Shown: positions 23,295 through 45,585 of the stretch, one piece after another
How positions within the stretch are numbered: position 1 is the first letter of the stretch
How the letters are laid out: every line of letters starts with the position of its first letter
Assembly: GCA_964392615.1 (NCBI GenBank)
Contig: CAYMRB010000002.1
Location: 4,243-68,242 of the forward strand
Length of the DNA stretch: 64,000 nucleotides
Source of the DNA: an uncultured Planctomycetia bacterium
Lineage (GTDB): Bacteria; Planctomycetota; UBA8108
Direction of reading: 5' to 3'
The notes under the pieces: generated by a model
The model's input: only the letters and a program-made list of their open reading frames with translations
Databases searched by the model: none
Told to the model about the DNA's origin: nothing
Made by a program: the position numbers and the translations under genes

Positions 23295-24401
23295 ATGGAA
23301 ATCGAATCACCTGCGGGGACGAGCATCGCCAGGGTCGCGCGGCTGATCGAGGAGGATCTGCTGCGTCGGGATCTTCTGCCGGATCAGCGGTACTTGACCG
23401 CGCAGGAAGCCGGCGAGCGCTTCGGAGTCCACCCGCGCATGGCCAGCCGCGCGATGAACGTCCTCGCGGAACGCCAGCTGTTGGTGCGCCGCCGGGGTTC
23501 CGGCACGATCGTCGGGCCCGGACTGCGCGAGTATCGCAAGTTTCGACTGCGGTGTGTGCACGTGCTGGTCTCGGAGAGTCGCTACCATCGCGGGCTGTCC
23601 GGCATGCACCTGCTGGAGGCAGTGCAGCGCGAGCTGGTGGGCCACGGCGTTCAGTTCAACGTCCTCCCGGCCGCCGACGAGGAGTCGTACGTGGCCGAGC
23701 TGCTTCGCCGGGGCACGGAGGACGGATCGTTGGCCGGACTGATCGTCATCGGGTGTGGACGCGCGACGCAGGAGCTCGTCGACGCCCGCAGGGTGCCGGC
23801 GGTCGTCTTCGGCCACGTGTATCCGATGACGCGAGACCTGCCCTCGGTGGACCTGGACCAGGAGAGTGCGGGGAGACTGCTCGCGCGCTGTGTCCTGGAG
23901 CGGGGGCACCGGCGGCTCGCGGTGATGGCGAACGACGTCTGGCTTCCCGGGGACAACCTGTTCCTTGACGGTGTGCAGGCAGAAGCTGCAGGGCGCGCGA
24001 CGGTGCTCGTGCGAGGACTGCCTCTGGAGGAGAAAGTCCTGCGAAGCGAGTTGGGCGACCTGATGTCGTCACCCGAGCCGCCGACGGCGTTCATCTGCCG
24101 CATGCCGTCGCGGGCGCGAATCGTGCTGGACGCTATTCGAGCGCGTGGCGCCGCCGTGCCGGAGGAGTTCGACGTCGTGTTCGACCATCCGCACGAGAGC
24201 GAGCAGGATACCCAGCTAAGCGACGTCCTGCAGTGCCCTCACGTCTTCTGCGAGGAGACCGAGGAGAGCCAGGCGGCGATCGTGTCGCGCATGTTGCGAG
24301 CGCTCGTCGATGGGGAGCGAATCGACAGCTCCACGATCGAGCTGCCGGTGCGCCTTGTCGTCCCGGATCACCGAACGAATCCGCCTCCGGAGAGGAGATG
24401 A
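23295..24401 (+). CDS. Transcriptional regulator: GntR-type winged-helix N-terminus fused to a LacI/PBP1-like sugar-binding domain
   Basis: wHTH segment YLTAQEAGERFGVHPRMASRAMNVLAERQLLVRRRGSGTIV, followed by a periplasmic-binding-protein-like effector domain (GLIVIGCG, VPAVVFGH, RRLAVMAN). Its stop overlaps the next start (ATGA at 24398-24401). Confidence 0.7.
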   Translation: MEIESPAGTSIARVARLIEEDLLRRDLLPDQRYLTAQEAGERFGVHPRMASRAMNVLAERQLLVRRRGSGTIVGPGLREYRKFRLRCVHVLVSESRYHRGLSGMHLLEAVQRELVGHGVQFNVLPAADEESYVAELLRRGTEDGSLAGLIVIGCGRATQELVDARRVPAVVFGHVYPMTRDLPSVDLDQESAGRLLARCVLERGHRRLAVMANDVWLPGDNLFLDGVQAEAAGRATVLVRGLPLEEKVLRSELGDLMSSPEPPTAFICRMPSRARIVLDAIRARGAAVPEEFDVVFDHPHESEQDTQLSDVLQCPHVFCEETEESQAAIVSRMLRALVDGERIDSSTIELPVRLVVPDHRTNPPPERR

Positions 24402-26953
24402 CACGCAGGACCATGCGCAGCACTTCGTTTGCAACCCTATTGTGGATCGTCGCCGCGTCGGTCGAGGCGCAGCAGCCGCGGGAATCCGCGCCGAACGTCG
24501 TTCTGCTGATGGCGGACGATCTCGGCTACGGCGATGTCGGCTTCACGGGAAACGCGATCGTCCAGACGCCACACCTCGACCGGCTCGCGGCGCGTGGCGT
24601 CCGTCTCGATCGGTTCTACTCGGCCGCGCCGGTGTGCTCTCCGACACGCGCGAGCTGCGTGACGGGGCGCCATCCGTACCGCGTCGGCATTCCGTGGGCG
24701 TTCGCAGGCGCGCTACCCGCGCGCGAGACGACGATCGGCGAGGCGCTTGGCGCGCTCGGCTACCGCACCGCGCACTTCGGAAAGTGGCACCTCGGCCTCC
24801 TGAGCCCGTCGGTGAAGCAGGGCTACGCGCCGGGCGACCCGAGTCCGCAGGCCTACGCCCCGCCTTGGGAGCACGGCTTCGCGGAGTGCTTCAGCGTGCT
24901 CAACAGCATTCCGACCTTCGATCCGTACTACATGCACTCCGGCGAGTTCGGCACCGAGGGCTATCGATTCGTCCTGGACCGTGCCATTCGCGGCGGCGAG
25001 CGCCAGGGCGGATTCGTCTGGCGCGACCGCTTCTGGACCGGACCGGGGACCTTGGTCGACGAGTGGTTGACGGGGCCTGTTCCGGACCTGCTCGTCGATC
25101 GCACGCTCGAGTTGGCGCGCGAGTCGAAGGCCGCCAACCGGCCGTTTCTCGCGTTGGTGTGGTTCTCCACGCCGCACACCCCGGTCGTCGCCGGTCCGAA
25201 GCACCGAGCGCTCTACCCGGATCGATCGATCGAGGAGCAGCACTGGTACGGCTCGATCTCGGCGATGGACGAGGCGATCGGTCGACTCGCGGCGGGGCTC
25301 GAAAAGCTCGACGTCGTGGACGACACGCTTCTATGGTTCTGCAGCGACAACGGACCGACCTGGGTCCACGAGCACGGCACGACCGGTGGTCTGCGCGCCC
25401 GCAAGGGAAGCCTCTACGAAGGTGGGATCCGCGTGCCGGCCCTCGTGCACTGGCCCGCAGGGCTCGAGGGAGGACGGAGCGTCGACGTGCCGATCGTGAC
25501 GAGCGATCTGCTGCCGACCGCCTTGGCCGCCGCCGGATCCGGTCCGCCGCGTCACGTCGAGCTCGACGGAGAGGACGTGCTGCCGATCCTCGCGGGGAAG
25601 AGAAAACAGCGCACGCGGCCGATCGGATTCCAGTCGCCTCGGCTCGAAAGCAAGGCGCGCGACACGAAGGCGTGGATGCAGATCGGCGGCCTGCAGCTGG
25701 CCTGGATCGACGGCGACGAGAAGCTCGTCAGCATGGACGGCGGGAAGAGCTGGCAGCTCTACGATCTTCGCTTCGACCGCGCCGAGCAGAACGATGTGTC
25801 CGCGGAGCGACCGGAGCGCGTGACCGCGATGCGTCAGGCTCTCGAGAGCTGGCGCCGGCGGTGCGCCACGAGCGCGCGGGGCGAGGACGCGGTTCCCGTG
25901 CTCGTCGCGCGCGAGACGGCCGTTGTCGGCGTCGAACGCTCGCCTTCGTGCTACGCGCAGTTTCGTGAGGGCTGCGTCTCCGTGACGAACGCGGGACGCC
26001 TGGTCGTCGTCGCGCAGGGGCGCGAGAAGAGCGCGTGGAGCGATCGATCGGGCCAGGACCTCGTCTGCCGCTTCAGTGACGACGGGGGCGACACGTGGGA
26101 GCCGACCGTGCTCGTGGCCGAGACGGGCGATCACTCGATCTGCCCGAACGCGACCGTCTACGATCGCGAGACCGACACGATTCACGTGCTGTACAACGTG
26201 TTTCTCTGGGACTTCCGGAAGCCCGACTCGCGGCGTCCGATGAAGGGGCGCGAGTGTCGGCAGTTCCAGGTTCGCAGCTCCGACGGGGGCGAGACGTGGT
26301 CGAAGCCTCGCGACATCACCGCGATGCTCGGCAGCGGAGGCTACACGACGGTGTTCGGATCCGGCGAGGGCATTCAGCTGCGTCGCGGATCGCACGCGGG
26401 CCGGCTCGTCGTGCCCGGCGGATTCCAGAATCGATGGGGCAACCGCTCATTCTACAGCGACGATCACGGCGTGACGTGGCGGGTCGGAGAGATCGCGCCC
26501 CGCGATCGCGTCAAGGGTCTCAACGTGCGTCTCGAGAACAAGGTCGCCGAGCTCGCGGACGGCACGCTCGTCCAGAACGTTCGACACACGCCCGAGCGCG
26601 TGCGCGCGTTCTCGAAGGACGGAGGGCAGACGTGGACGCCGCAGGAGGTCGACCGTGGCCTGCCCGCGGTCAGCTGCAACGGCAGCCTGCTGTGCGTTCA
26701 GGACGAGGCGGGGCGCGACGTACTCCTGTGCTCGGTTCCAGCCGGCCCGAGACGCACGCACGGTACGGTCTACGCGAGCACCGATGGTGGGCGCACTTGG
26801 CCGCGACGCGCGATGCTCGTCGAGAGCGAGTTCGCGTACTCGAGCCTCGTCGAGCTGCAGGACGGACGCATCGCGCTCGTCTACGAGGCGCGCAACCACC
26901 GCGATCTGTACGTCCGACGCTTCCGGCCGGACGACGTCTTTGCTGGAGAGTGA
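24398..26953 (+). CDS. Bifunctional fusion: Cys-type sulfatase (N-terminal, about nt 24488-25867) plus BNR/Asp-box sialidase-like beta-propeller (C-terminal, about nt 25898-26950)
   Basis: Signal peptide, then sulfatase blocks NVVLLMADDLGYGD and CSPTRASCVTGRHP (the C-x-P-x-R formylglycine motif), GKWHLG and SDNGP. The C-terminal half has five Asp-boxes (SDDGGDTW, SSDGGETW, SDDHGVTW, SKDGGQTW, STDGGRTW). FREG stands where GH33 enzymes have FRIP. I trimmed the start from 24233 to 24398 (RBS GGAGAGGAG). Confidence 0.8.
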   Translation: MTRRTMRSTSFATLLWIVAASVEAQQPRESAPNVVLLMADDLGYGDVGFTGNAIVQTPHLDRLAARGVRLDRFYSAAPVCSPTRASCVTGRHPYRVGIPWAFAGALPARETTIGEALGALGYRTAHFGKWHLGLLSPSVKQGYAPGDPSPQAYAPPWEHGFAECFSVLNSIPTFDPYYMHSGEFGTEGYRFVLDRAIRGGERQGGFVWRDRFWTGPGTLVDEWLTGPVPDLLVDRTLELARESKAANRPFLALVWFSTPHTPVVAGPKHRALYPDRSIEEQHWYGSISAMDEAIGRLAAGLEKLDVVDDTLLWFCSDNGPTWVHEHGTTGGLRARKGSLYEGGIRVPALVHWPAGLEGGRSVDVPIVTSDLLPTALAAAGSGPPRHVELDGEDVLPILAGKRKQRTRPIGFQSPRLESKARDTKAWMQIGGLQLAWIDGDEKLVSMDGGKSWQLYDLRFDRAEQNDVSAERPERVTAMRQALESWRRRCATSARGEDAVPVLVARETAVVGVERSPSCYAQFREGCVSVTNAGRLVVVAQGREKSAWSDRSGQDLVCRFSDDGGDTWEPTVLVAETGDHSICPNATVYDRETDTIHVLYNVFLWDFRKPDSRRPMKGRECRQFQVRSSDGGETWSKPRDITAMLGSGGYTTVFGSGEGIQLRRGSHAGRLVVPGGFQNRWGNRSFYSDDHGVTWRVGEIAPRDRVKGLNVRLENKVAELADGTLVQNVRHTPERVRAFSKDGGQTWTPQEVDRGLPAVSCNGSLLCVQDEAGRDVLLCSVPAGPRRTHGTVYASTDGGRTWPRRAMLVESEFAYSSLVELQDGRIALVYEARNHRDLYVRRFRPDDVFAGE

Positions 26954-32824: not shown

Positions 32825-32884
32825 CGAGCCAAGGCGATGGAGACACGTCTCTGCTTCCAAAGGACACCAACGAGGAAACCTGAC

Positions 32885-34150
32885 ATGATCCGCATCGTCC
32901 GACACCGTAATCTGTTGATCGCCGCTCTGATGTTCGGTCTCAACGCACCTGTCTCCAGCCAGGCGGATGCTCCGGCTGGATTCGACTTGCCGATTGTCGA
33001 TCTGGACGCTCGTGAAGACCTTCGCACCGTCGTGGATCGTGAGAAAGGCCAGTACCTTGGCCATCCGACCACGCTGCTGCTACGAGACGGGCGTACGATA
33101 CTGTGCGTCTACCCGAAGGGCCACGGCAGCGGCGCCGTCGTCTACAAGCGTTCGAAAGACGGTGGCAAGACATGGTCCGAGCGCCTGCCGACCCCCAAGA
33201 GCTGGGCGACCAGCAAGGAGGTGCCCACGCTCTACGAGACGGTCGATGCGACAGGCTCGCGCCGCGTGTTGATGTTCAGCGGACACCAGAACCGCTACCG
33301 CCCGGGCCCGCCCAACCGCATGGCTGTCAGCGACGACGGCGGGCTGACTTGGGGCGAGCTCGAGCCTATCCCCAACCAGATCGGCAGATCTGTGGTCATG
33401 AGCGACCTGATCGCCGTGAAGGACACGCCGGGTCACTATATGGCCAGCTACCACATGGACTGGCCTATCGACAGCGTGCGAACCTACCTTCTGTACACCT
33501 GCTTCACGGAAGACGGAGGCCTGACCTGGAGCGACCCGGTCACCATCCACTCCTCGCAGGACGACGACCTGGCCCTGTGCGAAGGCGGTTTCGTACGCGA
33601 TGGCTCGACCATCGCCGTGCTGCTGCGGGAGAACAGTCGCACCGCCCCGTCACAGATCATGTTCACCCGGGACGAGGGCCGCACTTGGACGAAGCCGCGT
33701 CCGTTGCCTCGCGCGTTGTGGGGTGATCGGCATCAGGTCGTAACGCTCAGAGATGGTCGGCTGCTGATCCAGTTCCGTGACTTCACGCCGAGGAGACGAA
33801 AGGGCAACCGGTCCAGCCCGACCGAGGGGGACTGGGCTGGCTGGGTGGGCACCTTCGAGGACTTGGTTCATGGACGGAAGGGGCAGTACCGGATCCGCGT
33901 GCGGGACAATCATCACGACTGGGATTGCGCATACCCGGCCATCGAGCAATTGCCCGATGGGACTCTGGTCAGCACCACCTACGGCTCTTGGGACGCTGGC
34001 GAGTCTCCCTACATCCTGAGTTACCGCTTCACCATCGATCAGCTGGACGCATTGGCAAAGCGGATCAACACCAAGGGGCAGCCTGCCGTACGCAATTACT
34101 TTCGTGGCAAGATGAATCTCTACACAGGCCACGCCCGACCGGGGCGGTAG
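32885..34150 (+). CDS. BNR/Asp-box repeat beta-propeller protein (sialidase-like; catalytic status uncertain)
   Basis: Asp-boxes SKDGGKTW, SDDGGLTW, TEDGGLTW and TRDEGRTW, plus a signal peptide. No clear RIP motif is visible. An alternative start is at 32837. Confidence 0.65.
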   Translation: MIRIVRHRNLLIAALMFGLNAPVSSQADAPAGFDLPIVDLDAREDLRTVVDREKGQYLGHPTTLLLRDGRTILCVYPKGHGSGAVVYKRSKDGGKTWSERLPTPKSWATSKEVPTLYETVDATGSRRVLMFSGHQNRYRPGPPNRMAVSDDGGLTWGELEPIPNQIGRSVVMSDLIAVKDTPGHYMASYHMDWPIDSVRTYLLYTCFTEDGGLTWSDPVTIHSSQDDDLALCEGGFVRDGSTIAVLLRENSRTAPSQIMFTRDEGRTWTKPRPLPRALWGDRHQVVTLRDGRLLIQFRDFTPRRRKGNRSSPTEGDWAGWVGTFEDLVHGRKGQYRIRVRDNHHDWDCAYPAIEQLPDGTLVSTTYGSWDAGESPYILSYRFTIDQLDALAKRINTKGQPAVRNYFRGKMNLYTGHARPGR

Positions 34151-35839: not shown

Positions 35840-38326
35840 TCAGCAGTCAGCGTTGGTCGGCGTCGGCGGAGGACCGCCCATGAAGAGGAAGCCGAGCAGC
35901 GCGATCGCGTCGCTCACGTCGAGCGCTCCGTCGTGATTCGTGTCGGCGGCGTCGGCGCAGGCGATCGGTTCGCCGCCGTCGAAGAGCGCGAGAAGCACGA
36001 AGACCGCGTCGGAGATGTCGACCGCTCCGTCGCCGTTCCCGTCCCCGCGCAGGGCCGTCGCGACGGGCGGTGACCACGCTCCGGTCGTGTCGTACCGCAC
36101 GTGGCGGATGTCGACTCGATAACCGTCTCCGAACGATCCTCGTGTGTAGTCGCCGAAGAGCAGGCGAGGGTCGTCTCGCGTCGAGTTGTAGCCCGCTCCA
36201 GCGGAGGGAGTCAGTCGAATGCCGTCGCGCCAGACGTGGTAGGCGCCAGCGGCTCTGACGTGGGCGACGCGATAGTCGTGGAACGCACCGTCCTCGTTGT
36301 CGCCATGCTCGGCCTCGAACGTCGTCGAGCGAGTCGCTCGAGCGTGGATCTCGACGAGGATCAGATCGTCACCCGTTCCGAGCCATAGAGCGAAGCCCGC
36401 GGCGATGTCGTCGAAGCGCAGGCGGATCTCGACGGTCCAATCGCCGCCGTTCGCCGTGTTCCACGTCGTCGCGCCACCATCCGCTGTCGACGCCGTGCCG
36501 TTGAGCACCGCGTTGCCGGTGTCGGTCGTGTTGACGAGGCGCAGCGAGCCGTCGGCGTTCCGCGATAGCTCCACTCCGCCGTCGTCGGACCAGCCGTTCC
36601 GGTAGCTCGTGCCGTCCCAGATCGCGCCGGCGTCGAACTGACGTGTGAACGTCGCCGAGTCCCTCAGGGCGAGCATCGTGCCGTCACCGCGTGCCTCGAC
36701 GTCCATGCCCAGCGCACGCGCGATCTCGCGAGCGATGTGACGCTCGCCGGCACCGTTCGGGTGGACGTCGTCGTAGGTCAACAAGTCGGCGTCGGTGCCG
36801 TCCGTCACCTCGACGTGCAGGACGGCCGAAGTCGCCGTCGACCACTCGGCGACAGCAGTCGCGAGGAGCGCGTTGTACGCATCGATTCTGTCGTTGAGCG
36901 CCGGAAAGGCGCGGTGGCCCGAGCCGACGTACGGCAGCGATGTCAGGTAGATCGTGCAGTGCGGGTTCGCGTCTTGGAGCTGCGACGTCATTGTTCGGAC
37001 GTCCGCGAGCACCTGGTTCGGGAGGACCTCGACGATGTCGTTCGTGCCGATCATCACGACGGCCGTGTCCGGCGTGTACGTCGTGCCGATGTTGCCCGTG
37101 TCGCTCGCGGAGGGGTCGGGGTAGGGGACCCAATTCCCCGCCGTGTCGACCTCGTACTGCGCGGTCTGGCCGGTCCAGTTCCGCAACGTTCCCTCGCCGC
37201 GGTTGTTGCCGCGCCGGCCGGATGGCAGTGGCAGCCGGCCCGATTCCCAGTAGGCGCGCCAGCCCCAGTGACCATCGTGGACGTTCGAGAACGCCCGCCC
37301 GCGGTAGTCGGGAGTCGACACGGCTCCGCGCGCATACGCGCCGGTCACCGAGCCGACGAACGTCCACGCAGCGCCATGATCCGCGAGGTGCTTGAAGAGC
37401 TCGTACCGATAGCTCGGGTGCCCGGCGCCTCCCTGCGTGATCGAATCGCCGATCACGACGAGGTCGCCGTAATCGCGATCGACGACGCCGGCATCGATCA
37501 ATGCCCATGCGAATCGCTGTCCGACGACCCGCTTCGCTTCCTTGTCGAAGTGGAGGTCGTCGTGCAGTCGCGACCGGAGATCGAGATTGTCGACATAGGT
37601 GATGGTCGGATCGGTTGCGGCCAGGGCCGATTGGCGGGAGCGGACGAGGTCCCGCGTCGCGCCGGCGGCGGCGATGCCCCCGATGACGACGTGCATGCCC
37701 GTCGCTCGCGGTAGATCGGCTCGCAGGTTCGCCGCCAGCGCGGCAAGACGGTCGCCGGCGAGAGAGGCTTCGGAGGCGCTATCGCTCTCGCCCTGAAGAT
37801 ACAGGCAGCCGACGATCTCGAACGTGTGTCCGTCCGCGATCAACGCGGCCGTCGCGCGCTCTACCGTCGCGATGATCTCGTCGTACATGTGGCCGCCCGT
37901 CGACCGCGACCAGTGTGCGTTGCCGCCGCCGCCGCGACTGACCTTGATGATGCCGAAGTCGCGCACTCCGGACCGGTACAGCGTGCGCGCACAGCCGAAC
38001 TCGGGGCCCCAATGCGTCGCGCTGCCGGGATAGAAACCTCCCTGCTGCTCGCGCAACGTCGTGAACGCGCCGCCAGAGTCACCGATCGTCGTCGACGCGT
38101 TCGCGACGTTGCGCCAGAAGAACCAGACCTTGGCGTCCACCGGATCGACTCCGGGTGACGGATCGGGCTGGTTCGGCTCGTTTGTCGTCCCGAGGGAGTT
38201 CGACTGTCCGGTCAGGAGGAACAGGCGGTAGTGCTCGGCGCGGGCGAGCCGGACAGGCGTCGCAACGAGCGCGAGGGCAGCGAGGACGACGCCGACGGCG
38301 CGAGTGGTGCAGCGCGAAGCGTTCAT
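35840..38326 (-). CDS. Four-part secreted protein: SASA/DUF303-like esterase, SGNH/GDSL hydrolase, a divergent copy of the repeat module, and a dockerin-like tail
   Basis: aa 33-280: LLTGQSNSLG ... YLQGESDS (sialate O-acetylesterase-like). aa 286-540: VVIGDSITQGG ... MIGTNDI ... DDVHPN (SGNH blocks I, III and V). aa 556-754: WTVEIRLRF, ALWLGTGDDLILVEI, EHGDNEDGAFHDYRVAH, YHVWRDGIRL, VRYDTTGAWSPP. aa 759-828: dockerin-like tail. Confidence 0.75.
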   Translation of the reverse strand: MNASRCTTRAVGVVLAALALVATPVRLARAEHYRLFLLTGQSNSLGTTNEPNQPDPSPGVDPVDAKVWFFWRNVANASTTIGDSGGAFTTLREQQGGFYPGSATHWGPEFGCARTLYRSGVRDFGIIKVSRGGGGNAHWSRSTGGHMYDEIIATVERATAALIADGHTFEIVGCLYLQGESDSASEASLAGDRLAALAANLRADLPRATGMHVVIGGIAAAGATRDLVRSRQSALAATDPTITYVDNLDLRSRLHDDLHFDKEAKRVVGQRFAWALIDAGVVDRDYGDLVVIGDSITQGGAGHPSYRYELFKHLADHGAAWTFVGSVTGAYARGAVSTPDYRGRAFSNVHDGHWGWRAYWESGRLPLPSGRRGNNRGEGTLRNWTGQTAQYEVDTAGNWVPYPDPSASDTGNIGTTYTPDTAVVMIGTNDIVEVLPNQVLADVRTMTSQLQDANPHCTIYLTSLPYVGSGHRAFPALNDRIDAYNALLATAVAEWSTATSAVLHVEVTDGTDADLLTYDDVHPNGAGERHIAREIARALGMDVEARGDGTMLALRDSATFTRQFDAGAIWDGTSYRNGWSDDGGVELSRNADGSLRLVNTTDTGNAVLNGTASTADGGATTWNTANGGDWTVEIRLRFDDIAAGFALWLGTGDDLILVEIHARATRSTTFEAEHGDNEDGAFHDYRVAHVRAAGAYHVWRDGIRLTPSAGAGYNSTRDDPRLLFGDYTRGSFGDGYRVDIRHVRYDTTGAWSPPVATALRGDGNGDGAVDISDAVFVLLALFDGGEPIACADAADTNHDGALDVSDAIALLGFLFMGGPPPTPTNADC
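35843..36052 (-). other. Dockerin-like double EF-hand module (C-terminus of the multi-esterase)
   Basis: RGDGNGDGAVDISDAVFVLLALFDGGEPIACADAADTNHDGALDVSDAIALLGFLFMGGPPPTPTNADC. Confidence 0.75.
36065..36661 (-). repeat. Divergent tenth copy of the ~200-aa repeat module (lacks the CC pair)
   Basis: It has the same block order as the copies at 46.6-55.8 kb (see the finding), but with lower identity. Confidence 0.55.
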
Positions 38327-38345: not shown

Positions 38346-41300
38346 TCAGCGTGTGGATTGAGTCGGGAGAAGGTCGCTGAAGGGCAGCTTGATCAAGGTC
38401 ATCGACCTGTACCCACTGCTCTCGTAGAGACACAGCAGGCTCTTCTCGTCTGCCGACACTTGCAGCGCGGAGTAGGCGAACGGGCCGTGAATGACTCTCA
38501 CGACGTGCCATGTCTTGCCGTTGTCCCTCGACACCGCGATCTGTCCGTTCTTGCGGCCGGCATTGGACGGGAACGACGCCCACAAGCCCCACCTGCCGTC
38601 CGGCTGGATCGGCCCCTTGATGACGCTGCCCATGCAGGCCACAGAGGGCAGGCCACGGTCGACGTCGAACGCGCTCCACGTCTCCCCGCCGTCGTGGCTG
38701 ATCGCCTTCTTGCGGAACAGGTCGCCGCCCTGGTTTCGAGCGATGAGCACGAGATCGCCGTTCGACGCCTCGACCACCTGGCATTCGTTGGGAAAGCCCT
38801 TACCACTCGCATCGGCAAGCGGCTCGGTTCGCTTCCAGGTGCTCCCGTCGTCATCGCTGTGTGCCACGACGACTTGCCACTGGCGCGAGCGCTTGCCGTT
38901 CTTGATGACCGGCAGCGTTCCCCACAGTCCCGTGACGATGCGGCCTTCGTGTGGGCCTCTCGTCAACTGGATCATCGCGCCCGGCGTGTTGGCATTCAGG
39001 AGATGAGGCGGCTTGACCTGGCGGCTGATGTCGACTGGCTTCGACCACGTCTTGCCGTCGTCGTCGCTGTGACAGACGAATGTCAGGACGTTGGCCTTTG
39101 GATCGTCGTAACCGAGGTTGGCCATCTTGATCCAGCCGGCGTCGCGAGCGTGCCGACCGTACGGGAAGCGAGCAAACATCAGCAGGATGCGCCCGCACCG
39201 TAGCTGGACGGTCAACGGGTCGTTGATCGAATTCATGCCGTCTTCGTGGGCTACGATCTCGTCGCTCCACGACTTGCCGCCATTCGTGCTGCGCTTGAGA
39301 ACGATGTCGTTTTGCGCGTGATCGTGAAGACCCAGTCGCCGCTCCGCGAATGCGAGGATGGTGCCTTTCTTCGTCACGAGCAGCGACGGGATGCGGTAGC
39401 CGTATTTCGTCGCGTTTCTCGCATGGCCTTCGCGAGGAGCGCTTTCAGGGAGGTTCCGTTGCTCGAAGATGATTCGGGCGTCGTTCGGCGCCACGAGGTC
39501 GCGCAACGGAATGCGTTGGAATACGAGGTGCGCCTGGCTGCCTTCGTAGAGGATGCCGACCGTGTCCTCGTCGACCATCGTCATGCAGGAGTACCCGGCG
39601 CCGAGGCCCTCATCCATTAGCAGTTGATGAGTCTCCGGCCACGTCATGCCGCGATCGCGCGATGCCTTGATCGTGATGTGATGGCGTCCGCGGACGCTGT
39701 TCGGATTCGAGAAGAGGAGCCAGCCGCCCGCCTCCTTGCGGAGTTCGCCATCGACGTCGATCAAGCTCGCCATGCACGCGCGGGGTTCGATGAGAGCGCG
39801 TTCGGACGTCGCGTGCTTCTGCCATGTCGTTCCCATATCGCGGGTCGTCATCACGACGCGCGCGGACTTGCGATTGTAGCGGCAGTTGAGCATCAGCACG
39901 CCCGGCTCGATCTCCACGACCTGCGACTCCGTCGTGTCATCGAACGCACCCGTCCCGACGCGCCACGTCTCGCCGTGATCCTTCGAGTAGATGATCGTCG
40001 AATGGGGCAGGCGCTTCTTTGCGGGCGGATCCTGATACTGAGCGGGGAAGACGATCGTGCCGTCGCGCATCGTGATCCCCTTGCCGGGGCCCTGGAGGAT
40101 GAAGCACCACGCGGGGTCCTTGATCTGCCGGGTGATGTTGATCGGCTTCGACCAGGTGATGCCGTCGTCGTCGCTGCGCACCAGCATCAGCTGACCCGTC
40201 TCCTCCGGCTTCAAGCCCGGGCCGGAGCCGCGCCAGGAGCGGTTGCCGTGGCTCCACGTCGCCGCCACCCAGATCGTGCCCGTGCCGCGGTCCACGAGCA
40301 CGGCCGGGTCGCCGATGCCGTCGTAGTGCCACTTCCGGTCGCCACCCATGTCCATGACGACTCGCATCGGCTCCCAGGTTCGCCCTCCATCCGTCGATCG
40401 CGACATGCCGACGTCGATGTCTCCTGGCAGATCGCCGCCGCCGCGCCTGCGGCAGTCGTAGACCGCGATCAGCGTCCCGGCGTTCGTCGTCGCGAGGCCC
40501 GGAATGCGATACGTGTGGACACCCTGATCACCGCCGTTGCGGAGCGCGACGCCCAGTCGGTTCGCGGGGCCGGATGCTGCGACCGGTCGGATCGTCTTGC
40601 CGTTCGAGAGTCCGACCGACACGACGGCTGCATCGACGACGTGATCGATGTTCGCACCGGCACGCAGCCGGAACCCGACCCAGAACCGATTCGCGCCGCT
40701 GCGCAGTTCCTGCTCGCCGCGAAAGGCGAGCGATCCCTTCGGCGCCTGGGGCTTGCCGAAAACCGTCGCGCCGGCGAACACGTTCGCGGTACGCGTGCGC
40801 CAGGAGCCGGAGCCCGTGAAGTACACCGTGACCGACTCGACGTCGGCCAAGTCGGTCGTGCCGCGCGTCGAGACCTCGATCGACGTGACCTTCAACGGAT
40901 CGAGGGCACCCGCGGCCTCGATCGTCAAGCCCGTGACCGGGTTCCCCGGCAGGCCGATGAGAACCGGTGTGACCGACCGAGCGGCCGTCGCCGAGACGAC
41001 CTTCATCGGCACCGGCCTCTCGAGGCGCACATCGTCGATCAGGAGGCCGGATTTCTGCGGGCTGGTGCAGAGGAAGCGCAGCTTTTCGATTCCTGCGTCG
41101 ACGGGTACGGCCACCTCGGTCAGGAAGCCGCCGACGCGAATCGTGCGGCTGCCGTCGTATAGTGTCCTCCACTCATCGTGACGCAGCCCCTCGATGCGGA
41201 ATGCGAACGGCTTGCGGGCCGTCCAGCGCTCGGCCCAGAAGGAGAGGCGATACGAGACGCCGGGCTTGACGGACGGCACGAGCTCGACCGAGCGATCGGC

Positions 41301-41549
41301 GCCGCCGAAGATGTGCAAGCACTGGCGCCCGCCGTGTCGGTGATGCGGATCGATCTCGGCGTGCCCCGATTCGGCCGACCAGCGTCCGACGGCAGTGGTC
41401 AACGTTTCGAACGGTCCCGACTTCGCCGCCTCGAAGCCCTCTGCGGCGATCAGCGCGGGATCGGCGCGATCTTCGCGAGCGCGGTCTTGCGCGGGGACGG
41501 TGGCCACGAGCGCGGCAAGGCCGAATGCGATCAGCATCTTCTCAACCAT
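38346..41549 (-). CDS. Secreted tandem double GH33 sialidase with N-terminal CBM-like and sialidase-associated N-terminal domains
   Basis: Catalytic domain 1 (about nt 39501-40559) has the RIP motif HTYRIPGLATTNAGTLIAVYD and five Asp-boxes (STDGGRTW, SDDDGITW, SKDHGETW, TRDMGTTW, SRDRGMTW). Catalytic domain 2 (about nt 38376-39458) has YGYRIPSLLVTKKGTILAFAE and five Asp-boxes (STNGGKSW, SDDDGKTW, SDDDGSTW, SHDGGETW, SRDNGKTW). The start is at MVEKMLIAFGLAALVATVPAQ (41549), or at MLIAFG (41537). Confidence 0.85.
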   Translation of the reverse strand: MVEKMLIAFGLAALVATVPAQDRAREDRADPALIAAEGFEAAKSGPFETLTTAVGRWSAESGHAEIDPHHRHGGRQCLHIFGGADRSVELVPSVKPGVSYRLSFWAERWTARKPFAFRIEGLRHDEWRTLYDGSRTIRVGGFLTEVAVPVDAGIEKLRFLCTSPQKSGLLIDDVRLERPVPMKVVSATAARSVTPVLIGLPGNPVTGLTIEAAGALDPLKVTSIEVSTRGTTDLADVESVTVYFTGSGSWRTRTANVFAGATVFGKPQAPKGSLAFRGEQELRSGANRFWVGFRLRAGANIDHVVDAAVVSVGLSNGKTIRPVAASGPANRLGVALRNGGDQGVHTYRIPGLATTNAGTLIAVYDCRRRGGGDLPGDIDVGMSRSTDGGRTWEPMRVVMDMGGDRKWHYDGIGDPAVLVDRGTGTIWVAATWSHGNRSWRGSGPGLKPEETGQLMLVRSDDDGITWSKPINITRQIKDPAWCFILQGPGKGITMRDGTIVFPAQYQDPPAKKRLPHSTIIYSKDHGETWRVGTGAFDDTTESQVVEIEPGVLMLNCRYNRKSARVVMTTRDMGTTWQKHATSERALIEPRACMASLIDVDGELRKEAGGWLLFSNPNSVRGRHHITIKASRDRGMTWPETHQLLMDEGLGAGYSCMTMVDEDTVGILYEGSQAHLVFQRIPLRDLVAPNDARIIFEQRNLPESAPREGHARNATKYGYRIPSLLVTKKGTILAFAERRLGLHDHAQNDIVLKRSTNGGKSWSDEIVAHEDGMNSINDPLTVQLRCGRILLMFARFPYGRHARDAGWIKMANLGYDDPKANVLTFVCHSDDDGKTWSKPVDISRQVKPPHLLNANTPGAMIQLTRGPHEGRIVTGLWGTLPVIKNGKRSRQWQVVVAHSDDDGSTWKRTEPLADASGKGFPNECQVVEASNGDLVLIARNQGGDLFRKKAISHDGGETWSAFDVDRGLPSVACMGSVIKGPIQPDGRWGLWASFPSNAGRKNGQIAVSRDNGKTWHVVRVIHGPFAYSALQVSADEKSLLCLYESSGYRSMTLIKLPFSDLLPTQSTR

Positions 41550-42762
41550 CGATCGACGGACTCCCGGGAGTGTCGTCGGTCGCACGACCGAGCAGCTCCT
41601 CGACGATGCGCCAGCAGACGAGCTGCATGCGCGGAAGGTGAAACGGCCCCTTCCAGAGATTCCCCTTGAGGGGGACCGATACGCGGCCATCCCGGTGCAG
41701 ATAGCCGTACCACTCGCCGTGCTCCCGATCGGGGAAACGCTCGTAGGACCAATCGTGTACCGCCTGGTGCCAGCGCGCGTACTTCTCGTCGCCGGTCAGC
41801 GCGAAGGACAGCAGCGTCGCGATGATCGTCTCGTTGTGCGGCCACCAGAACTTCATGTCGTGCCAGTACTCCTGCACCGGCTTGTCCCACAGGTCGCGGA
41901 AGTACAGTATGCCGCCGTACTCCTGATCCCAACCGCGGCGCCACATCCAGTCGAGCATTGTCGTGCCGAGCTCGACCAGATCGCTGTCGCCACCGCGGTG
42001 GCGCGCTTCGTCGAGGATGAACCACGCGGCCTCGATCGCGTGACCGGGATTCAGCGTGCGGCCGTCGAAGTGGTCGATGACCTCGCCGTTCGGACCGACC
42101 GCTTCCATCACGACCTCGAGGTCGGTCTTGACGAAGTCGCGACGAATCTCGTCGATCGACTTCTCGATCTGTTCATCGGCGAGAGGATCGTCGATCGTCT
42201 CGCGCAGCACCTGCGCGACGCCGAGCAGGATCATCGGCGCGCCGATCGCTTTGGCCGGACGCGTCTGCGGATCGACCTTCGGCGGAATCAGCCCGGGCGT
42301 CGCGAAGTAGCGAATGACCAGTCGGAACAGGTCTCGCGCCTGCTGAGCCGCCTCGTCGTCGCCGCTTGCGCGCGCGTAGGCGGCCAGCGCGATCGCCGCG
42401 AACGCTTCGGTGAACACGTAGCGGCGCTTGCGCAGCGGTCGGCCATCGCGCGTCACGTGAAAGAACATGCGGCCATCGTCGTCGAAGCCGTGCTCGCGGA
42501 TGAAGCGCACGCCGTGCGCGGCGAGCTCGAGCCACTCGGGACGCTTCTCGACCGTGTTATAGAGCGTGCCGAGGAGCCACGTGAACCGACCGTGCTGCCA
42601 CATGCCCTTGTCGTCATCGAGGACGCTGCCGTCGCGATCGAGCGCGAACCGAAAGCCGCCGTGCTCGCGGTCGACGCAGTGGTCGATCCAGAATGGCAGC
42701 GTGTCGCCGAGGAGGCCATCGCGATAGACGGCGAGCAGCTCCCGGAGGCGTGGCTCGTTCAT
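41542..42762 (-). CDS. N-acylglucosamine 2-epimerase (AGE/renin-binding-protein family; ManNAc to GlcNAc step of sialic acid catabolism)
   Basis: The alpha6/alpha6-barrel AGE family pattern runs throughout: LPFWIDHCVDREHGGF, MWQHGRFTWLL, NPGHAIEAAWFIL, KFWWPHNETI and GEWYGYLHRDG. Confidence 0.85.
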   Translation of the reverse strand: MNEPRLRELLAVYRDGLLGDTLPFWIDHCVDREHGGFRFALDRDGSVLDDDKGMWQHGRFTWLLGTLYNTVEKRPEWLELAAHGVRFIREHGFDDDGRMFFHVTRDGRPLRKRRYVFTEAFAAIALAAYARASGDDEAAQQARDLFRLVIRYFATPGLIPPKVDPQTRPAKAIGAPMILLGVAQVLRETIDDPLADEQIEKSIDEIRRDFVKTDLEVVMEAVGPNGEVIDHFDGRTLNPGHAIEAAWFILDEARHRGGDSDLVELGTTMLDWMWRRGWDQEYGGILYFRDLWDKPVQEYWHDMKFWWPHNETIIATLLSFALTGDEKYARWHQAVHDWSYERFPDREHGEWYGYLHRDGRVSVPLKGNLWKGPFHLPRMQLVCWRIVEELLGRATDDTPGSPSIDG

Positions 42763-44480
42763 GGCGATTCTCCAGGTTCGTCGATGGGCATGTTCACGTG
42801 GCGCGAGCTGGCGGGGTTCGCCTGGATCCAGGCGCGAATGCGCGCGATCACCTCGGGGTGATCAGCCGACACGTCGTCGTGCTCGGACACTCCGAACGTC
42901 GCGCGGATGTCGAACAGCTGCACAGAGCCGTCTGCCAGAAACACGCACTTCCACTTGCCGTGACGTGCGAAGCGGGCGAATCGGCGGTCGACCGGGATCG
43001 TCGCGGCGAGTCGCCGCTTGACCGCAGCGTGCCGTGGATCGGCAGCGACGTTGAACCACTCCTCGGGATCGACCTCCAGATCGTAGAGCTCCTCGCTGCC
43101 GTCGAAGTAGCGGATGTAGCGCCACCGCTCGGTGAACACGCTGTGCGTGCCGCGACCGACCGACGCGACGACGTGCCGCGTCCACTCGCGACGTGGATCT
43201 CCGACGAGAGGGAGCAGGCTCCTGCCCTCCAGCTCGGAGCGCATGGGAAGGCCACACGCGTCGATCAGCGTGGGGTAGAGGTCGAGAAGGCTGACGGGTG
43301 CGTCACAGCGTGAACCGGGCGCGAAGCCCCTCGGTGGGGCACCGCGCGGCGGCACGATGACGAGCGGCACGCGCAGCGAGCCGCGCCACGGGTCGTGCTT
43401 GCCCCAGTGCTCCTTCTCGCCGAGCGACCAGCCGTGGTCGGACCACAGGACGATCCACGTGTTGTCCGCCTGCTCGCTGCGGTCGAGCGCGTCGACGACT
43501 TTGCCGACCTGCGCGTCGGCGAATGCGATGGTCGCGAGGTACGCAGCGACCCCGGCGCGCCATTGGCCCTCGCGAGCGACCGTGGCGTGTGTTCCCGCCG
43601 ACCAGGCCGCACCGGCAAGGTCTCTGCCGGCTCGCGGTACATCGTGGAGGTCGCCGGCGATCGTCGGCGGTAGCGCGACGCGCTGAGGGTCGAACAGCTC
43701 GAAGTACTTGCGCGGCACGATGAACGGTTGGTGTGGCTTGTAGAAGCCGACCGCCAGAAAGAACGGAGCGTCTCGACGCCTCTCGAGCTTCTCGACGGCC
43801 CAGCGCGCGATCCTGCCGTCCGGAAACGCGTCGTCGTCGACGTCCAGCGGTCCCCATTCGAACGTGTCGTACGTCATCGTGGGCCGATCGATGAGCGACA
43901 GGCCGCCGTTCATCGGCAGCGTGCAGCGAATGCCGTCTCGATCGATGCGTCGCGACTCGCCGCCTTCGAGTCCCGCGGCGAGGAACTCGTCGTGGGTGAA
44001 CGGAGTGCCGACGATGCCGCAGTCCGGTCCGTACTCGTGCCAGAGCTCGGGAAGCCGCTGACCGAGGCCGTGGTTGACCTTGCCCGCGCCGAGCACGCGA
44101 TAGCCGTGCCGCTTGAAGTGCAGAGGAAGGCCGACAGCGTTCGGGACGCGATCGGCGTACGTTCCGAGGTTCGTGTAGACGCCGGTCGTCTCCGGACGCA
44201 TTCCGGTCAGCACGGCGGCGCGCGAGGGCCCGCAGATCGGGGACACGCAGTGTGCGTTCGTGAACAGCACGCCGCGGTGAGCGAGGCGGTCGATGTTCGG
44301 AGTCCGCGCGTCCGGATGCCCATCGAGGCAGCCGACCCAATCGGCGAGGTCGTCGACCGCGATGAAGAGGACGTTCGGGCGCTTCGGCGCGGCAGCGGCG
44401 GCGGTATCGAACGACGCCGCACACCACGAGCCGACCACGAGCACGAGAGCGACTCGTTGCAGCCTCTCAGGGACCGTCAT
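42759..44480 (-). CDS. Cys-type sulfatase (iduronate-2-sulfatase-like)
   Basis: Signal peptide, then NVLFIAVDDLADWVGCLDG, TPNIDRLA and CGPSRAAVLTGMRPETTG (C-x-P-x-R), plus WSDHGWSLGEKEHWGK. I trimmed the start from 44933 to 44480. Its stop overlaps the AGE start by 4 nt. Confidence 0.85.
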   Translation of the reverse strand: MTVPERLQRVALVLVVGSWCAASFDTAAAAAPKRPNVLFIAVDDLADWVGCLDGHPDARTPNIDRLAHRGVLFTNAHCVSPICGPSRAAVLTGMRPETTGVYTNLGTYADRVPNAVGLPLHFKRHGYRVLGAGKVNHGLGQRLPELWHEYGPDCGIVGTPFTHDEFLAAGLEGGESRRIDRDGIRCTLPMNGGLSLIDRPTMTYDTFEWGPLDVDDDAFPDGRIARWAVEKLERRRDAPFFLAVGFYKPHQPFIVPRKYFELFDPQRVALPPTIAGDLHDVPRAGRDLAGAAWSAGTHATVAREGQWRAGVAAYLATIAFADAQVGKVVDALDRSEQADNTWIVLWSDHGWSLGEKEHWGKHDPWRGSLRVPLVIVPPRGAPPRGFAPGSRCDAPVSLLDLYPTLIDACGLPMRSELEGRSLLPLVGDPRREWTRHVVASVGRGTHSVFTERWRYIRYFDGSEELYDLEVDPEEWFNVAADPRHAAVKRRLAATIPVDRRFARFARHGKWKCVFLADGSVQLFDIRATFGVSEHDDVSADHPEVIARIRAWIQANPASSRHVNMPIDEPGESP

Positions 44481-45585
44481 CGAAGATCCTCCTCGCCTTG
44501 TCGAGTATCCACTGATAGCGTTCGAGGCTGACGTCCGGCGGGCAGGAGTGGTCGGAGTGGAAGATGTAGCCGCCGTCCCACGCGAGTGGCACCTTGCGCT
44601 CGAGCTCGGCCAGAAGGGCGTCTCGACCGCCGGCCATCTTCGTCGCGTCGATATTGCCGTAGAACGCCAGCTCGCGGCCGTAGCGTTCACGGAGCGCGAC
44701 TCCGTCCATGCCTGCCTTGACCTCGAGCGGATTGAGCACCTGGACGCCGGCGTCGATGATGTCGTCGAGGAGCGGCTCGACTTGACCGTCGGTGTGCATC
44801 CAGAACGCGATGTCCTCGGAGCGCAGGAACTCGCCGAGACGCGCGACGTGCGGCTTGAAGATGCTCCGCCACATCTGCGGCGACAGCATCGGTCCTGTCG
44901 AGGAGCCGAGATCGTCCGCGGCGAGAATGCCATCGGGCTTCATGCCGAGCTCGGCGCACCGCCTGAGCGTGGCGATGACGAGATCCTGAAACGTCCCCGC
45001 CATCTCGCTGACCCAATCGGGCTCGAGCGCGAGGTCCATCAGGAGGTTCTCCATGCCGCGGTGCCGCCACGTCGCCTCCATCGGTCCGTAGACCATGAAG
45101 AGGATGTAGCGGTCCGTGGCGCGCAGACGCTCGTACTTCGCGACCGCCTCGCTCCAGGTGGGATACGGGTCGAAGTGGCCGAAGTACTGCACGTCGTCGA
45201 CGCGCGATGGCTCGCGAGGATCGTCCGAGAGACGGAAGCGCTCCTTGATGGCGGTCCACGCGTCCTGGTCCGTCGTCACGTGACGGACGAAGTGCATCGT
45301 CGACGAGAGACCTTCCTGCTTCGTGATCGTGTAGCCGTAGCGATCCTCGTAGGTGATGTTGCCGTCGCGGCGCTCGAGCACCTTCATCTCGAAGCGCGGT
45401 GACGCGTCGACGAACATCATCTCGATGTCGAAGTCGAAGTAGTCCGCGAGGGAGGCGTCGCGCGGAATTCCCTCGTCATACCAGGCCGCCGCGGTCTGCA
45501 TCCACGGCGACTCGTGAACGGGGAGACGGTCCGGCCGCTCGAAGCGCAGCGCCGTCTGAACGCGGTCTCGGGACGTCGGGCTCAC
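44467..45585 (-). CDS. Uroporphyrinogen decarboxylase (URO-D/MtaA-like) family protein, function unknown in this context
   Basis: The 372-aa TIM-barrel-like protein has length and C-terminal blocks (HTDGQVEPLLDDIIDAGVQVLNPLE, YIFHSDHS) reminiscent of the URO-D/methylcobamide methyltransferase superfamily. It is the first gene of the minus-strand operon. Confidence 0.55.
   Translation of the reverse strand: MSPTSRDRVQTALRFERPDRLPVHESPWMQTAAAWYDEGIPRDASLADYFDFDIEMMFVDASPRFEMKVLERRDGNITYEDRYGYTITKQEGLSSTMHFVRHVTTDQDAWTAIKERFRLSDDPREPSRVDDVQYFGHFDPYPTWSEAVAKYERLRATDRYILFMVYGPMEATWRHRGMENLLMDLALEPDWVSEMAGTFQDLVIATLRRCAELGMKPDGILAADDLGSSTGPMLSPQMWRSIFKPHVARLGEFLRSEDIAFWMHTDGQVEPLLDDIIDAGVQVLNPLEVKAGMDGVALRERYGRELAFYGNIDATKMAGGRDALLAELERKVPLAWDGGYIFHSDHSCPPDVSLERYQWILDKARRIFDDGP

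Follow-up and report, generated by a model that had tools for sequence, protein, structure and literature searches.

Why should a bacterium carry two complete sialidases on a single polypeptide, and are these one enzyme doubled or two enzymes joined? The question is raised by a minus-strand gene at 38346..41549 of a 64,000-nucleotide stretch of DNA (hereafter the window) from contig CAYMRB010000002.1 of an uncultured Planctomycetia bacterium (assembly GCA_964392615.1). A first-pass annotation, made from the sequence alone, had described its product as a secreted protein with a jelly-roll resembling carbohydrate-binding modules (CBMs), a sialidase-associated N-terminal domain and two divergent GH33 catalytic domains in tandem. 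We find that both GH33 domains, termed here D1 and D2, keep the full catalytic set of the family, that they belong to separate sialidase lineages and that they were joined by gene fusion. The protein is likely, in our view, to be a secreted two-headed exo-alpha-sialidase in which D1 would be a generalist and D2 would take care of sialic acids that D1 handles poorly.

A tandem sialidase with two complete catalytic domains

The open reading frame (ORF) spans 38346-41690 on the minus strand, as do all the coordinates given below for this gene. Its likely start is the ATG at 41549, contained in ATGGTTGA, and its stop codon occupies 38346-38348, which gives a protein of 1067 codons in the ORF list and translation (P0001, 1067 aa). 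The start lies inside the end of the upstream GlcNAc 2-epimerase gene, whose stop falls within an 8-nucleotide overlap, and is preceded, 11 nucleotides upstream, by a GGAG. The order of elements in the translation is signal peptide, CBM-like beta-sandwich, BNR_assoc_N, GH33 domain D1, a five-residue linker and GH33 domain D2. The signal peptide (residues 1-21, MVEKMLIAFGLAALVATVPAQ, 41487..41549) was recognized by eye as a hydrophobic core followed by VPAQ, with D as the next residue; as read from the translation, it makes secretion plausible. D1 covers residues 331-686 (39492..40559) and D2 residues 692-1067 (38349..39476). Between the two propellers, the DNA encodes the linker APNDA (residues 687-691, 39477..39491). 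The tandem arrangement reported by the first-pass annotation thus stands, since the frame is continuous and Pfam detects two BNR_2 stretches in the whole protein (E 5e-55); the domain limits given there, 39501-40559 and 38376-39458, fall within about 30 nucleotides of ours. The C-terminal 379 residues, taken by themselves, still match BNR_2 with an E-value of 2.7e-25.

Sequence and model comparisons assign the six-bladed beta-propeller fold of sialidases to both domains. D1 aligns full-length to solved GH33 structures (residues 266-686, E 1.4e-140; Sialidase26 and BT0455 are among the PDB matches), and Pfam assigns it both BNR_2 and BNR_3. For D2, the Pfam match is joined by a clade profile that finds NanI of C. 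perfringens at E 6e-67 and by an AlphaFold2 model built with 37 aligned homologues (pLDDT 93.8, pTM 0.92). The top 50 PDB matches of this model in Foldseek all contain sialidase domains and are led by NanI, NanA and NedA (M. viridifaciens), at E-values of about 1e-24 and a TM-score of 0.77. Both domains display the hallmarks of the family that had been claimed for them. The RIP motif is found as YRIPGL at residue 347 in D1 and as YRIPSL at residue 718 in D2, and five Asp-boxes (S-x-D-x-G-x-T-W) can be located in each, one of them relaxed: at residues 385, 459, 522, 569 (TRDMGTTW, the relaxed box) and 630 in D1, and at 754 (STNGGKSW, relaxed, with N for D), 828, 898, 951 and 1007 in D2.

Catalytic residues were examined in an alignment of 243 GH33 domains cut out of homologues. 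D1 possesses R348, D373, E541, R557, R622, Y653 and E669, and D2 possesses R719, D743, E922, R938, R999, Y1026 and E1043. None of these seven columns varies among the 117 domains of the D1 clade, the 35 of the D2 clade or the 84 of a wider D2-like group. In HMMER alignments, the D2 residues correspond to R266, D291, E539, R555, R615 and Y655 of NanI, of which E539 and Y655 are the catalytic Glu and Tyr. Catalytic roles have been described for the Arg triad and D291 of NanI (PMC11525138). The same domain aligns with E260, R276, R342 and Y370 of the M. viridifaciens sialidase, and the Y370F variant of that enzyme (1WCQ) shows its Phe in the Y1026 column. Both domains are therefore complete GH33 catalytic domains. 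That one of them might be a degenerate, lectin-like copy, as the first-pass annotation had considered, is ruled out because both keep the full, clade-invariant catalytic set. Both heads are presumably active, judging from these residues.

Upstream of D1, two further modules are recognized, both in agreement with the first-pass annotation. The CBM-like beta-sandwich (residues 22-185, 40995..41486, with an invariant FWAERWT motif) is modelled by AlphaFold2 with a pLDDT of 92.8, and its best Foldseek matches are the beta-sandwiches of CBM16, CBM4, CBM22 and CBM61 (E 1e-6, TM 0.5-0.6, 14-20% identity); the Pfam CBM_4_9 score of 19.7 bits lies under the cut-off of 25.9. Hundreds of D1-type proteins, and some of the D2 type, have a domain 40-50% identical to it as their N-terminal module. 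The sialidase-associated domain (residues 186-330, 40560..40994) is BNR_assoc_N (PF14873), the N-terminal domain of Bacteroides-type sialidases. Pfam matches it over residues 188-316 (E 4e-19), and it aligns to the N-terminal domain of the Hz136 and T. forsythia NanH structures.

Two lineages joined by gene fusion

D1 and D2 are 31% identical over 323 aligned columns (30% according to BLASTP). In a maximum-likelihood tree of 75 domains, they fall into different clades, each with 100% support in the Shimodaira-Hasegawa-like approximate likelihood ratio test (SH-aLRT), with long branches between them. This identity and the separate clades rule out a recent tandem duplication, and the phylogeny bears out the divergence noticed in the first-pass annotation.

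Both lineages are widespread. The D1 module, composed of the CBM-like domain, BNR_assoc_N and GH33, abounds in Planctomycetota and Verrucomicrobiota, where its catalytic part is 70-85% identical. Members of the D2 clade are 63-80% identical across Pirellulales, Planctomycetaceae, Verrucomicrobiota, Kiritimatiellales, Victivallales and marine Bacteroidota. Among the 20 remaining genomes of the order from which the window comes, none has a D2-clade gene (best match 44% identity). In the sister genus, the D1 module is 60% identical to that of the window and the ORF stops directly after D1 (…FQRIKIREVFGR, followed by the stop codon). This is the point where D1 ends in the window protein (...FQRIPLRDLV). 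D2 begins with RIIFEQRNLPE, a segment that comes after the signal peptide in P0121 and after the CBM in P0128 and P0043. Furthermore, in two metagenome-assembled genomes (MAGs), one of them from Sedimentisphaerales (L017) and the other at locus L003, a D1-type gene is followed after a gap of 15-19 nucleotides by a separate GH33 gene. These pairs are unfused versions of the window's gene order. Together with the stop after D1 in the sister genus, they lead us to conclude that the tandem protein results from a lineage-specific, in-frame fusion and not from a duplication. A Bacteroides-type module (CBM-like, BNR_assoc_N, D1) would have been joined to a GH33 gene of the other clade, normally found in the same operon. 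Fusion would have removed the stop codon, the intergenic spacer and the signal peptide of D2 itself, leaving the five-residue tether.

Composition is uniform over the junction. The GC content at third codon positions (GC3) is 0.84 for the sialidase gene, 0.87 for D1 and 0.82 for D2, and the genes of the window average 0.85 (standard deviation 0.04). A recent horizontal gain of D2 is thus unsupported by composition, as D2 lies inside the window range, although its clade is absent from the other genomes of the order.

The same modules have been recombined differently in the sister genus (L056, G008:C77; 4-7793, minus strand). There, the D1 module of the nearest relative carries a fused N-terminal GDSL/SGNH esterase (953 aa); its gene is followed by a sulfatase gene and then by a fusion of an unknown N-terminal domain, a relative of the BNR propeller BNR-X described below, and a sulfatase. 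In an Akkermansiaceae MAG (L009, 111-1214), a D2-clade homologue of 69% identity contains two in-frame stops (table 11) and may be a pseudogene or reflect a sequencing error.

Double-GH33 proteins in related bacteria

The first-pass annotation implied that such an architecture is unusual. This view has to be revised: two full GH33 domains were found in 15 of the 231 protein clusters obtained from two homology searches, and in six more among 142 additional representatives, for a total of at least 21 of 373 related clusters. Double GH33 is uncommon yet not rare, and it is recurrent in related bacteria. The D1 module is associated with partners from at least three GH33 clades, on its N- or C-terminal side and on different D1 sub-lineages. 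Because partners differ in clade, side and sub-lineage in the tree, the sequences indicate several independent fusions of GH33 domains. The partner GH33 domains that were checked keep the catalytic set, but Asp is replaced by Glu in two of seven.

These double-GH33 proteins are uncharacterised and come from Planctomycetota, Lentisphaerota, Verrucomicrobiota and Bacteroidota; like the window protein, they have two propellers per polypeptide, and they often share its CBM-like and BNR_assoc_N modules. Examples are P0005 (1028 aa), P0013 (1062 aa, annotated 'exo-alpha-sialidase [Phycisphaerae bacterium]'), P0121 (785 aa), P0043 (1466 aa) and P0345 (735 aa). Most show the reversed order (second GH33, CBM, BNR_assoc_N, D1) or pair other clades, and none has a D1 module followed by a D2-clade domain. 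Among the closest cases to the window order are P0345 and P0154, in which a GH33 domain is combined with a D2-like domain and the CBM module is missing. A further 61 clusters are made up of Bacteroidota proteins of about 785 aa that combine a D2-like GH33 with a second BNR propeller devoid of sialidase residues. The representative library also contains a giant protein, P0295 (6052 aa), in which 24 separate stretches match the query, the best-scoring of them in the BNR_assoc_N region (residues 193-321).

We know of no characterised bacterial sialidase with more than one catalytic domain. In a search of 8.4 million full texts, natural tandem-GH33 proteins were not described anywhere; the hits concerned engineered fusions or used the phrase for something else. 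Multi-catalytic carbohydrate-active enzymes (CAZymes) are common in principle, as illustrated by same-family tandem GH domains in chitinases and xylanases; like the window protein, they bring catalytic and binding modules to one complex substrate on one secreted polypeptide. In this sense, the window protein represents a known type of enzyme in a variant not yet characterised, and no new kind of system. Its impact is limited accordingly: multi-catalytic CAZymes are common, databases already contain double-GH33 proteins that have passed without remark, and our claims are drawn from sequence and models.

Clade-specific residues and sulfatase synteny

Do the two heads have different tasks? Around the acid/base Asp, the D2 motif is GLHDHAQND (residues 740-748 of P0001, window positions about 39306-39332), to be compared with GGADAPNND in NanI and GGGDLPGD in the D1 clade. 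The catalytic residue is thus flanked by two His in D2 (H742 and H744), by Gly and Leu in the D1 clade and by Ala and Ala in NanI. The D2 motif is invariant in 37 D2 and D2-like sequences, down to 34% identity, and we view it as a candidate specificity determinant. Elsewhere, D2 has N776 where D1 has G413, and a conserved pocket loop rich in Arg and His, ARFPYGRHAR, where D1 reads T-WSHGN.

A second difference lies in gene neighborhoods. Of 16 D2-clade loci in reference genomes, three are fused to a sulfatase and nine are directly flanked by a sulfatase gene, often with overlapping ends. Adjacency or fusion to a sulfatase is thus the rule (12 of the 16 loci) and is typical of the D2 clade, unlike D1. 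The D2-clade gene itself is stand-alone (about 400 aa) in 11 of the same 16 loci. Furthermore, single loci in several phyla contain a gene of the D1 type together with one of the D2 type.

These three lines of evidence (clade-fixed residues, co-occurring gene types and sulfatase adjacency) make it plausible that D1 and D2 differ in substrate specificity, as the first-pass annotation had proposed. The maintenance of D1-type and D2-type genes side by side in distant phyla argues for non-redundant roles. D1 would most likely be a general-purpose sialidase, like BT0455, Sialidase26 and TfNanH, and D2 would most likely take sialic acids poorly handled by D1, for example on sulfated glycans or otherwise modified. 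We infer the link of D2 to sulfated substrates, or more generally to modified or sulfate-associated sialic acids, from the adjacency or fusion to sulfatases and from the clade-fixed His, Asn and Arg near the active site. Both heads would use the standard retaining GH33 mechanism, in which the Arg triad holds the carboxylate, the Tyr/Glu pair acts as nucleophile and Asp as acid/base, with a further Glu (E669 in D1, E1043 in D2) that stabilises the first Arg. The CBM-like and BNR_assoc_N domains would keep the enzyme on the glycan, and the rest of the locus, with its O-acetylesterases, sulfatases, NanM-SSS transporter fusion and GlcNAc 2-epimerase, would handle and import the released sialic acid.

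Several points weigh against this two-headed reading. The order CBM-BNR_assoc_N-D1-D2 occurs in no other protein among 5.8 billion searched, a codon-degenerate pattern of the junction found no other contig in the JGI metagenomes, and the tandem architecture is thus a singleton on one MAG contig. Intact catalytic residues prove by themselves neither activity nor differing specificity, and pocket residues were placed on NanI by sequence alignment, which is uncertain in loops. As to sulfatases, their target may equally be the glycan underneath, as sulfate on Gal or GlcNAc below the sialic acid, and nothing that D2 sees. The bias towards sulfatase fusions is also partly a length-filter artefact: a near-constant fusion of D2-clade genes to sulfatases was suggested by a search that admitted only proteins of 587-1867 aa, and the counts from reference genomes given above do not bear it out.

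With these reservations, the two-headed reading has consequences of some breadth. Whether commensals, pathogens and marine degraders can reach sialylated glycans is governed by sialidases. Two intact heads of different clades in one protein, and unfused pairs in other phyla, would form a 'Rosetta stone' indicating that the two types share a substrate but cannot replace each other. The main lead is the D2 clade, whose conserved sulfatase partner makes it a well-defined target in the search for microbial enzymes acting on sulfate-associated or modified sialic acids, of which none is known. A bolder version would turn the D2 clade into an undescribed sialidase subfamily specialised for sialic acids that are sulfated themselves or sit on sulfated glycans, and the window protein into a natural two-headed enzyme that removes ordinary and sulfate-associated caps in a single pass. 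We entertain this idea only tentatively and suspect that it goes too far. According to a 2023 review, no microbial enzyme acting on sulfated sialic acid had been reported (PMC10017367).

The two heads might instead be active yet redundant. The tandem would then simply raise avidity or the local density of catalytic sites on polymers dense in sialic acid, and operon compaction would have produced the fusion as a neutral accident. Indeed, these phyla contain fusions of GH33, sulfatase, esterase and CBM modules in many different orders, a sign of frequent shuffling that is perhaps unselective, and D1 and D2 both score best against ordinary hydrolytic exo-sialidases. Such redundancy seems unlikely to us, however, given the 31% identity, the clade-fixed differences beside the catalytic Asp and in pocket loops, the pairing of both gene types in distant phyla and a tight sulfatase synteny confined to the D2 clade.

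Relation to characterised sialidases

The D1 part of the protein has orthologue-level relatives of known structure. Five Bacteroidales-type sialidases, Sialidase26 (6MYV/6MRV), Hz136 (6MNJ), BT0455/BTSA (4BBW), P. distasonis BDI_2946 (4FJ6) and T. forsythia NanH (7QY9), align end to end with residues 186-686 at E-values of 1e-131 to 1e-140 (1.4e-140 for Sialidase26 and 1.4e-131 for BT0455), and their two-domain layout of BNR_assoc_N and GH33, together with the catalytic residues, is that of the window protein. Compared with them, the window protein has an extra CBM-like domain in front and an extra GH33 propeller behind; no solved relative has a second catalytic domain.

D2 finds its best profile and fold matches in another group, formed by NanI and NanJ of C. 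perfringens, NanA of S. pneumoniae (2BF6, 2VK5, 8URL, 2YA4) and the M. viridifaciens sialidase (1EUR), with all of which the Arg triad, Asp, Glu and Tyr of D2 align. Identity with these enzymes is 25-28%. D2 lacks the domain that is inserted in NanI and NanA, a beta-barrel, and likewise in NanB and RgNanH (profile positions 90 to 108 delimit the gap). Asn776 of D2 seems to occupy the place of Ile327 in the N-acetyl pocket of NanI, in a loop where the alignment is uncertain. As loop alignments to NanI are unreliable, we dropped the attempt to read Kdn, Neu5Gc or linkage specificity from pocket residues.

It is also conceivable that one head, more likely D2, is no simple hydrolase and works as an intramolecular trans-sialidase (IT-sialidase of the NanB, RgNanH or sialidase L type, a type with alpha2-3 specificity, an inserted domain and 2,7-anhydro-Neu5Ac as its product), as a trans-sialidase or mainly as a binding module. 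IT-sialidases share the same catalytic residues, so that a residue check cannot discriminate, and the D2 profile does match the R. gnavus anhydrosialidase (E 1e-42) and leech sialidase L (E 2e-38). The scores nevertheless favour a hydrolase over an IT-sialidase or a Kdnase: the profile yields 229 bits with NanI, 205 with NanJ, 188 with NanA and 184 with NedA, against 135-150 with IT-sialidases and 97 with the Kdnase. The best fold matches are likewise hydrolytic, D2 is free of an inserted domain of the NanI, NanA, NanB or RgNanH type, and we did not notice an oxidoreductase of the 2,7-anhydro-Neu5Ac pathway among the genes of the locus, where no dedicated search for it was made. Overall, the profile, fold and residue comparisons gave no pointer to Kdn, Neu5Gc, trans- or anhydro-sialidase chemistry, all of which the first-pass annotation had mentioned, and we judge a non-hydrolytic head to be quite improbable.

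Finally, a merger of adjacent genes by assembly or sequencing error in the MAG, or a chimeric contig, would fit an architecture with a single member on one contig and a junction seen on no independent contig, but we give it very little credence, as a single-base error could not delete a stop, a spacer, a start and a signal peptide and yet leave an in-frame five-residue junction at domain boundaries, composition shows no break, D1 and D2 (31% protein identity) have no repeat in common at the DNA level by which an assembler could be misled, and comparable fusions arose independently elsewhere.

Genomic context of the tandem sialidase gene

The sialidase gene belongs to a minus-strand operon in which the upstream genes (41542..45585) overlap at their ends. 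The operon is led by a URO-D-like gene (44467..45585, Pfam URO-D), followed by a sulfatase gene (42759..44933, Pfam Sulfatase/SGSH_C), two genes upstream of the sialidase, and by the N-acylglucosamine 2-epimerase gene (41542..42762, Pfam GlcNAc_2-epim). Downstream, 19 nucleotides past the sialidase stop, begins a gene for a double esterase of the sialate O-acetylesterase type on the same strand (35840..38326, SASA E 2e-22 and Lipase_GDSL_2 E 1e-16). A Draconibacterium MAG (L021) has a D1-type gene, a URO-D-like gene, a D2-type gene and a sulfatase gene, which is the set found in the window; its URO-D homologue (1507-2580) is located between the D1-type and D2-clade sialidase genes. This conservation suggests that the URO-D-like gene is a regular, unexplained member of the gene set.

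Other genes around the sialidase encode a NanM-SSS transporter fusion, a sulfatase-SASA esterase fusion, a sulfatase-GH33 fusion and BNR-X. The source genome, a 10.4-Mb MAG, encodes about 20 BNR_2 proteins. In the sulfatase-GH33 fusion (24233-26953, plus strand), FRE replaces YRIP, and the GH33 part clusters with the second GH33 domains of P0009, P0011, P0012 and P0013, away from D1 and D2. The window thus holds three different GH33 clades plus BNR-X. The latter (32837-34150, plus strand) is a secreted BNR propeller of 437 aa, with GQYLGHPTT for YRIP and neither the Arg triad nor the Asp of sialidases. Its sequence shares 50% identity (E 3e-124) with the C-terminal half of the Bacteroidota proteins of about 785 aa that have a D2-like GH33 as their N-terminal half. 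Because the two are fused in those proteins, the D2-type sialidase and BNR-X form another Rosetta-stone pair, with its members 4 kb apart in the window.

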